Positions 12,351 through 13,549 of a DNA stretch of 23,456 nt are shown one piece after another. The first letter of the stretch is position 1; each line of letters opens with the position of its first letter. The notes beneath the pieces were generated by a model. It was not told the origin of the DNA. It did no database searches and saw only the letters and a program-made list of their open reading frames with translations. The stretch comes from a virus (lineage: Duplodnaviria; Heunggongvirae; Uroviricota; Caudoviricetes), in the IMG/VR virus record IMGVR_UViG_2526164646_000006; one strand, given 5' to 3'. The translations under genes and the position numbers were made by a program.

Positions 12351-13549
<1,199 letters not shown>

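Follow-up and report, generated by a model that had tools for sequence, protein, structure and literature searches.

IS911, a member of the IS3 group of the IS3 family, was first described from Shigella dysenteriae. Its published organization comprises a 100-residue OrfA with an N-terminal HTH, an OrfAB transposase produced by −1 frameshifting, and inverted repeats of 36 bp (PMC2909936). The element considered here lies in a lambdoid/P22-like prophage on contig AGRC01000012.1 (assembly GCA_000281795.1, Shigella flexneri 6603-63), the whole of which, 23,456 bp in length, was analyzed and is referred to below as the window. A full-length element extends from position 12310 to 13557 on the plus strand and measures 1,248 bp as deposited, compared with 1,249 to 1,250 bp for most other copies. 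Over 100% of its length, it displays 98.7 to 99.0% nucleotide identity to many loci annotated by PGAP as “IS3-like element IS911 family transposase,” a label that also includes the words “programmed frameshift.” The element begins with TG and ends with CA, and its termini, TGAAGTGG on the left and CCACTTCA on the right, match each other over the terminal repeats, as IS3-family ends do. The 36-bp left inverted repeat (IRL; 12310 to 12345, plus strand) aligns with the reverse complement of the right end, and its 36-bp counterpart (IRR; 13522 to 13557, plus strand) pairs with the left end. An AAG trinucleotide flanks the element on both sides (12307 to 12309 and 13558 to 13560). An IS-free version of the same prophage is found in the complete chromosome CP026792.1, where the empty site (...gcgAAG followed by aaaaacc) contains AAG only once, proof of a 3-bp target duplication. 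IS911 is oriented in the same direction as the replication gene that it interrupts, encoding a toprim primase/helicase, whose 5′ part spans 10783 to 12309 and whose 3′ part spans 13558 to 13913 (both on the plus strand). Removal of the IS and of one AAG, together with the addition of one A at 12256, restores an intact frame of 626 residues that is identical to the CP026792.1 protein.

The canonical start codon of orfA and orfAB is the ATG at 12382 to 12384 (plus strand; IS position 73), at which PGAP begins the coding sequences of loci L001 and L002. An SD-like AGGTG motif, visible 5 nt upstream (12372 to 12376, plus strand), may serve this start. In the window, the ATG is followed by a run of six A residues (A6; 12385 to 12390, plus strand) and then by G, whereas essentially all other IS911 copies have seven (A7). 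Sequence and translation bore out the preliminary description, according to which the ATG and its six A residues are offset from the frame of the OrfA body (EKRNFSAEF...NSSR; 12384 to 12683 including the stop codon, plus strand), the latter giving a match to Pfam HTH_Tnp_1. Translation of the deposited sequence from 12382 yields a 38-residue out-of-frame peptide (MKKEILAQ...FPQ). Conceptual insertion of one A into the run produces, exactly as had been proposed, an ORF of 100 codons plus stop (MKKRNF...NSSR), and position 1 of the HTH_Tnp_1 profile aligns with residue 1 of MKKRNF.... The PGAP-annotated copies start at the same ATG followed by A7, and no A6 reference with orfA starting elsewhere was present among them. 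In the deposited window copy, the canonical ATG opens neither an intact orfA nor an intact orfAB, which bears on the function of the deposited copy and not on its identity as IS911.

The OrfA body shares its frame with positions 12384, 12351, and 12309. The nearest upstream in-frame ATG is indeed the one at 12351 to 12353 (plus strand), as had been noted; it is preceded by GAGGTGAT, falls in the OrfA frame solely in the A6 state, and adds an N-terminal extension to give a 110-residue product. A GTG at 12309 lies in the same frame and would give 124 residues. For an A6 relic carried by enterotoxigenic (ETEC) plasmids, PGAP chose the equivalent of ATG 12351 as the start. In the A7 state, the same ATG (IS position 42, after GAGGTGAT) opens a 16-codon upstream ORF that overlaps the orfA start (12351 to 12401). 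A promoter scan around the left end of the IS gave nothing useful on the plus strand.

Downstream of the A-run, the programmed −1 frameshift heptamer A AAA AAG (12632 to 12638, plus strand) is intact, and so is the orfB frame (12638 to 13549, plus strand), which encodes the catalytic rve/DDE part of OrfAB. The conceptual orfA-orfB fusion comprises 389 residues, the length of the PGAP products. Domain searches run on this conceptually repaired protein gave 378.9 bits against NF033516 (cut-off, 160; profile positions 1 to 368 of 369), and Pfam HTH_Tnp_1, rve, and rve_3 all exceeded their cut-offs. With 99% identity to annotated IS911 copies at the nucleotide level, these sequence matches identify the element as IS911 of the IS3 family, in agreement with the initial assignment. 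The window copy resembles IS911 in its ends, inverted repeats, 3-bp duplication, orfA/orfB overlap, and domains, and its OrfA reaches 100 residues once one A is restored. It departs from IS911 in having A6 rather than A7 after the start codon, with the loss of the canonical frame that this entails, and in carrying a strain-specific G-to-T change at 13208 (Gly to Cys in OrfB).

The preliminary description had proposed either a homopolymer error or a damaged copy as the origin of the short run. This dichotomy was correct, and we rank a sequencing or assembly error as the more likely of the two. With a probability that we put at roughly 0.75, the deposited A6 is a homopolymer under-call in the draft of S. 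flexneri 6603-63, the true sequence being the A7 of a canonical, recently transposed IS911. The deficit would then have arisen in base calling or in the consensus, not in the cell, probably on a pyrosequencing-like platform. The platform of these IGS drafts (AGRC01, with reads from circa 2010) is probably 454, which is pyrosequencing-like; a literature search on the accession and the strain found no description of the sequencing method, and this counts against the under-call. With A7, the element would encode the 100-residue OrfA and, by −1 frameshifting at 12632 to 12638, the 389-residue OrfAB transposase, and the copy is in all other respects canonical and probably functional. Alternatively, the A6 may be real. 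Replication slippage after insertion would in that case have removed one A from A7, leaving a nonautonomous, decaying IS911 in an already defective prophage, with ATG 12382 yielding the 38-residue peptide alone and neither OrfA nor OrfAB being made. We consider this second reading unlikely, yet it has to be weighed against each line of evidence.

We first consider how often A6 occurs elsewhere. In species-representative genomes, a search pattern permitting 5 to 8 A residues found A7 in 23/23 IS911 copies, and the IS911 copies of the S. flexneri 301 and M90T virulence plasmids also have A7. An 81-base probe applied to complete E. coli genomes (n = 5,426) detected exact A6 in 7 of the 4,285 matching records, against more than 4,000 with A7, and all seven represent a single relic, truncated and interrupted by IS30, that is carried by ETEC CS6 plasmids. 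Among PLSDB plasmids, exact A6 was present in 17/2,150 matching records. A6 thus makes up about 0.2 to 0.8% of the IS911 copies in other collections, yet it is common in the S. flexneri draft family, including at junctions that have A7 elsewhere, a distribution that argues against slippage in the cell. Inherited A-run deletions are nonetheless known in IS911, which supports slippage and counts against an under-call: besides the ETEC relic and an A5 heptamer at locus L002, the complete chromosome CP026871.1 has one A6 copy that is otherwise intact, and an IS91-interrupted A6 copy is common to two drafts and to the independent assembly CAJFAQ01. Naturally decayed copies resemble that of the window in the loss of a single A from one of the two long A-runs (A6 in the ETEC relic, A5 in L002). 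However, seven records from different strains share the ETEC relic, which is truncated or split by other IS elements, and the L002 copy, although full-length, belongs to a species in which other genomes carry 1,248-bp copies too, whereas the window copy is full-length, retains its target duplication, is very recent, and is unique to one draft contig.

The L002 copy, from E. coli YJ4 (NZ_AP023230.2), is a 1,248-bp IS911 located next to the fec genes, with its A5 at IS position ~319. The PGAP annotation nevertheless describes an intact “programmed frameshift” transposase, and the A5 heptamer may be a real inherited defect that this annotation hides. Several other E. coli genomes also contain 1,248-bp IS911 copies.

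The 6603-63 assembly itself provides the closest comparison, since it contains further IS911 copies. The copy on AGRC01000011.1 (L055) is identical to that of the window, including the T at 13208, except for the length of two A-runs: its orfA start is followed by A7, and its frameshift heptamer (L055, 805 to 822) contains A5 in place of A6. The runs that differ are the two longest A-runs of the element; the start run lacks one A in the window copy, and the heptamer run lacks one in the AGRC01000011.1 copy. In two other genomes, IS911 copies with the same left junction as the AGRC01000011.1 copy have A7 at the start and A6 in the heptamer, and a third copy in the 6603-63 assembly, on AGRC01000020.1, is likewise canonical (A7/A6). 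If both short runs were real, the AGRC01000011.1 copy would have required its own independent deletion at the other long A-run with zero substitutions, a coincidence that weighs against slippage. A real A5 in that heptamer would truncate OrfA to 90 residues and abolish OrfAB. The G-to-T change at 13208 was absent from ~45 other IS911 copies examined, and the corresponding OrfB variant was otherwise found in one contig only, AGRC01000011.1 of the same assembly. Sharing of this change solely with the AGRC01000011.1 copy, the left flank of which is identical to those of L014 and L022, suggests that the window copy descends from that older insertion or from a gene-conversion partner of it.

A second comparison was made with the IS-free prophage of CP026792.1. 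From 2741 to 12309, the window differed from it by 1 substitution and two one-base gaps (99.97% identity), and from 13558 to 23456 it showed no gaps and 18 substitutions, all within 21873 to 22335; no further gaps were found over ~19.4 kb. The 18 substitutions fall within 460 bp of the terminase large-subunit gene, in 9.9 kb that are identical elsewhere, and this cluster looks like a short recombination patch. Judged by sequence divergence, the near-identity of the flanking prophage to its IS-free sister (1 substitution in 9.6 kb) means that the IS911 insertion is very recent. In so young an insertion, a real inactivating mutation would have had little time to arise, and since the element transposed, it must have been functional or have been helped. 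At both gaps, the window has one A fewer than CP026792.1 (A5 versus A6 at 10279 and A3 versus A4 at 12256), and the E. coli relatives used for comparison have the CP026792.1 length at these two sites (4/4 and 3/3, respectively). The window therefore shows three single-A deficits within 2.1 kb versus one isolated substitution, a large indel excess for real divergence that counts against slippage in the cell.

The A3 at 12256 to 12258, 55 bp upstream of the IS, introduces a frameshift into the toprim/helicase gene, and it is probably another under-call or else further gene decay. The host prophage being already disrupted, further decay would not be selected against, a point in favor of slippage. 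A 23-bp deletion in the O gene/ori iteron region (10237) is present in both the window and CP026792.1, while the A5 at 10279 to 10283 is absent from the latter. The 23-bp deletion and the single-A deficit add up to 24 bp and leave O in frame (278 residues) in the window, whether as a compensating change or through a coincidental error, compared with an O called as a 150-residue fragment in CP026792.1. This A5 was also reproduced in the Logan re-assembly of run SRR060746. Its recovery by an independent assembler, together with the preserved frame in O, suggests that at least one single-A deficit could be real, which counts for slippage and against an under-call at the neighboring orfA run.

The Logan re-assembly has this prophage too, with its rare 23-bp deletion, on a contig that stops at window position 11928, short of the IS. 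Over 7.1 kb, it differed from the window at one position, T5 versus T6 at 5706, and we interpret this disagreement between Logan and GenBank as a sign of noise in the reads at homopolymers. The T6 of the GenBank record (5706 to 5711) gives an intact 322-residue ORF as in relatives, and the Logan T5 is in error there. In the sister copy and in the Logan and GenBank versions, the discrepancy is limited to run length in otherwise identical sequence, and the gaps relative to the sister prophage are likewise two single A residues.

Variation in repeat length is a recognized possible artefact of high-throughput data (PMC4746626). The A6 product was concentrated in a single family of S. flexneri drafts dating from ~2011 to 2012 (K-227, K-315, K-1770, 4343-70, and others), and at four junctions these drafts had A6 where other assemblies of the same insertions had A7 (draft/other assemblies: L031/L018; L035/L005 and L021; L036/L007; L073/L070, L009, and L010). 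Two of the comparators, the long-read assemblies CP182556.1 and CP178302.1, are noisy, with many random 1-base gaps, which qualifies the junction comparison and counts against the under-call; their use as gold standards was abandoned for this reason, and they were considered solely where they showed the longer run. In the K-315 draft, 5/8 runs with a comparator length of 7 were called as 6, and two of these five lie outside IS elements, in unique DNA. A general truncation of every 7-run to 6 in the drafts was rejected, since 7-runs occur at 2.5 per 10 kb in the drafts versus 2.0 in RefSeq E. coli loci. The pasting of one collapsed IS911 consensus at every draft site was also rejected, given copy-specific single-nucleotide polymorphisms and deletions within one draft. 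The window has 1 seven-run versus 15 six-runs, a mild depletion. When it was compared with four E. coli prophages, ~1,500 homopolymer comparisons agreed, including 21 at 6-runs. This accuracy elsewhere in the window, like the absence of an overall 7-run depletion in the drafts, counts against an under-call, and the agreement with relatives at nearly all other homopolymers favors slippage in the cell.

On balance, the under-call is favored by the run-length disagreements with the sister copy, the sister prophage, the re-assembly, and the sister drafts, combined with the A7 norm and the youth of the insertion. The pattern is that of homopolymer consensus errors in flow-based or long-read drafts in several respects: the difference in the window amounts to a single mononucleotide run that is under-called; of two IS911 copies that match everywhere else, each has a different one of the two longest A-runs shortened; two assemblies of the same prophage disagree at one homopolymer only; and sister drafts under-call in unique DNA too. 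It is unlike such errors in that the window assembly is accurate at most other homopolymers.

Finally, the A6 could be real and the copy still expressed, as an attenuated, down-tuned IS911 able to move. Three routes can be envisaged. Read-through or circle-junction transcripts might be translated from ATG 12351 into a 110-residue extended OrfA and an extended OrfAB; low-level −1 ribosomal slippage on G AAA AAA G might restore MKKRNF...; or RNA polymerase might do so by adding an A through transcriptional slippage. ATG 12351 is in frame solely in the A6 state and has the SD-like sequence GAGGTGAT before it, the 110-residue product retains the HTH_Tnp_1 domain, a −1 shift out of the ATG frame restores the wild-type sequence in the frame of OrfA, and the IS is co-oriented with the interrupted toprim gene. 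Expression by any of these routes is nevertheless hypothetical, the SD core lies close to ATG 12351 for an SD sequence, thousands of copies conserve A7, A6 copies hardly ever occur in high-quality genomes and are often relics where they do, and a sequencing artefact covers the data without a new mechanism, so that we regard this reading as highly improbable.

No reading of the A6 amounts to novel biology: it is most likely an under-call and otherwise an ordinary 1-base inactivating deletion, and the underlying biology (IS911 with its start codon and programmed frameshift) is already known. The value of the observation is practical, as A-run frameshifts in these Shigella drafts from 2010 to 2012 are unsafe at face value, including where they underlie a pseudogene call or a tally of inactive IS copies. 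If real, the deletion adds one more inactivated IS copy to an IS-rich genome.

The truncated toprim product was confined to contig AGRC01000012.1. No toprim::IS911 insertion was found in the 5,426 E. coli genomes, and querying with the O protein and with the 58-residue C-terminal toprim fragment returned no other assembly with this insertion. In several Shigella genomes (L067, L069, L072, L073, L074, and L070), another IS911 adjoins the same toprim C-terminal fragment. These copies lie 16 bp upstream of the 58-residue ORF, with varied left flanks and in either orientation, which indicates IS911-IS911 rearrangements in a related prophage remnant.
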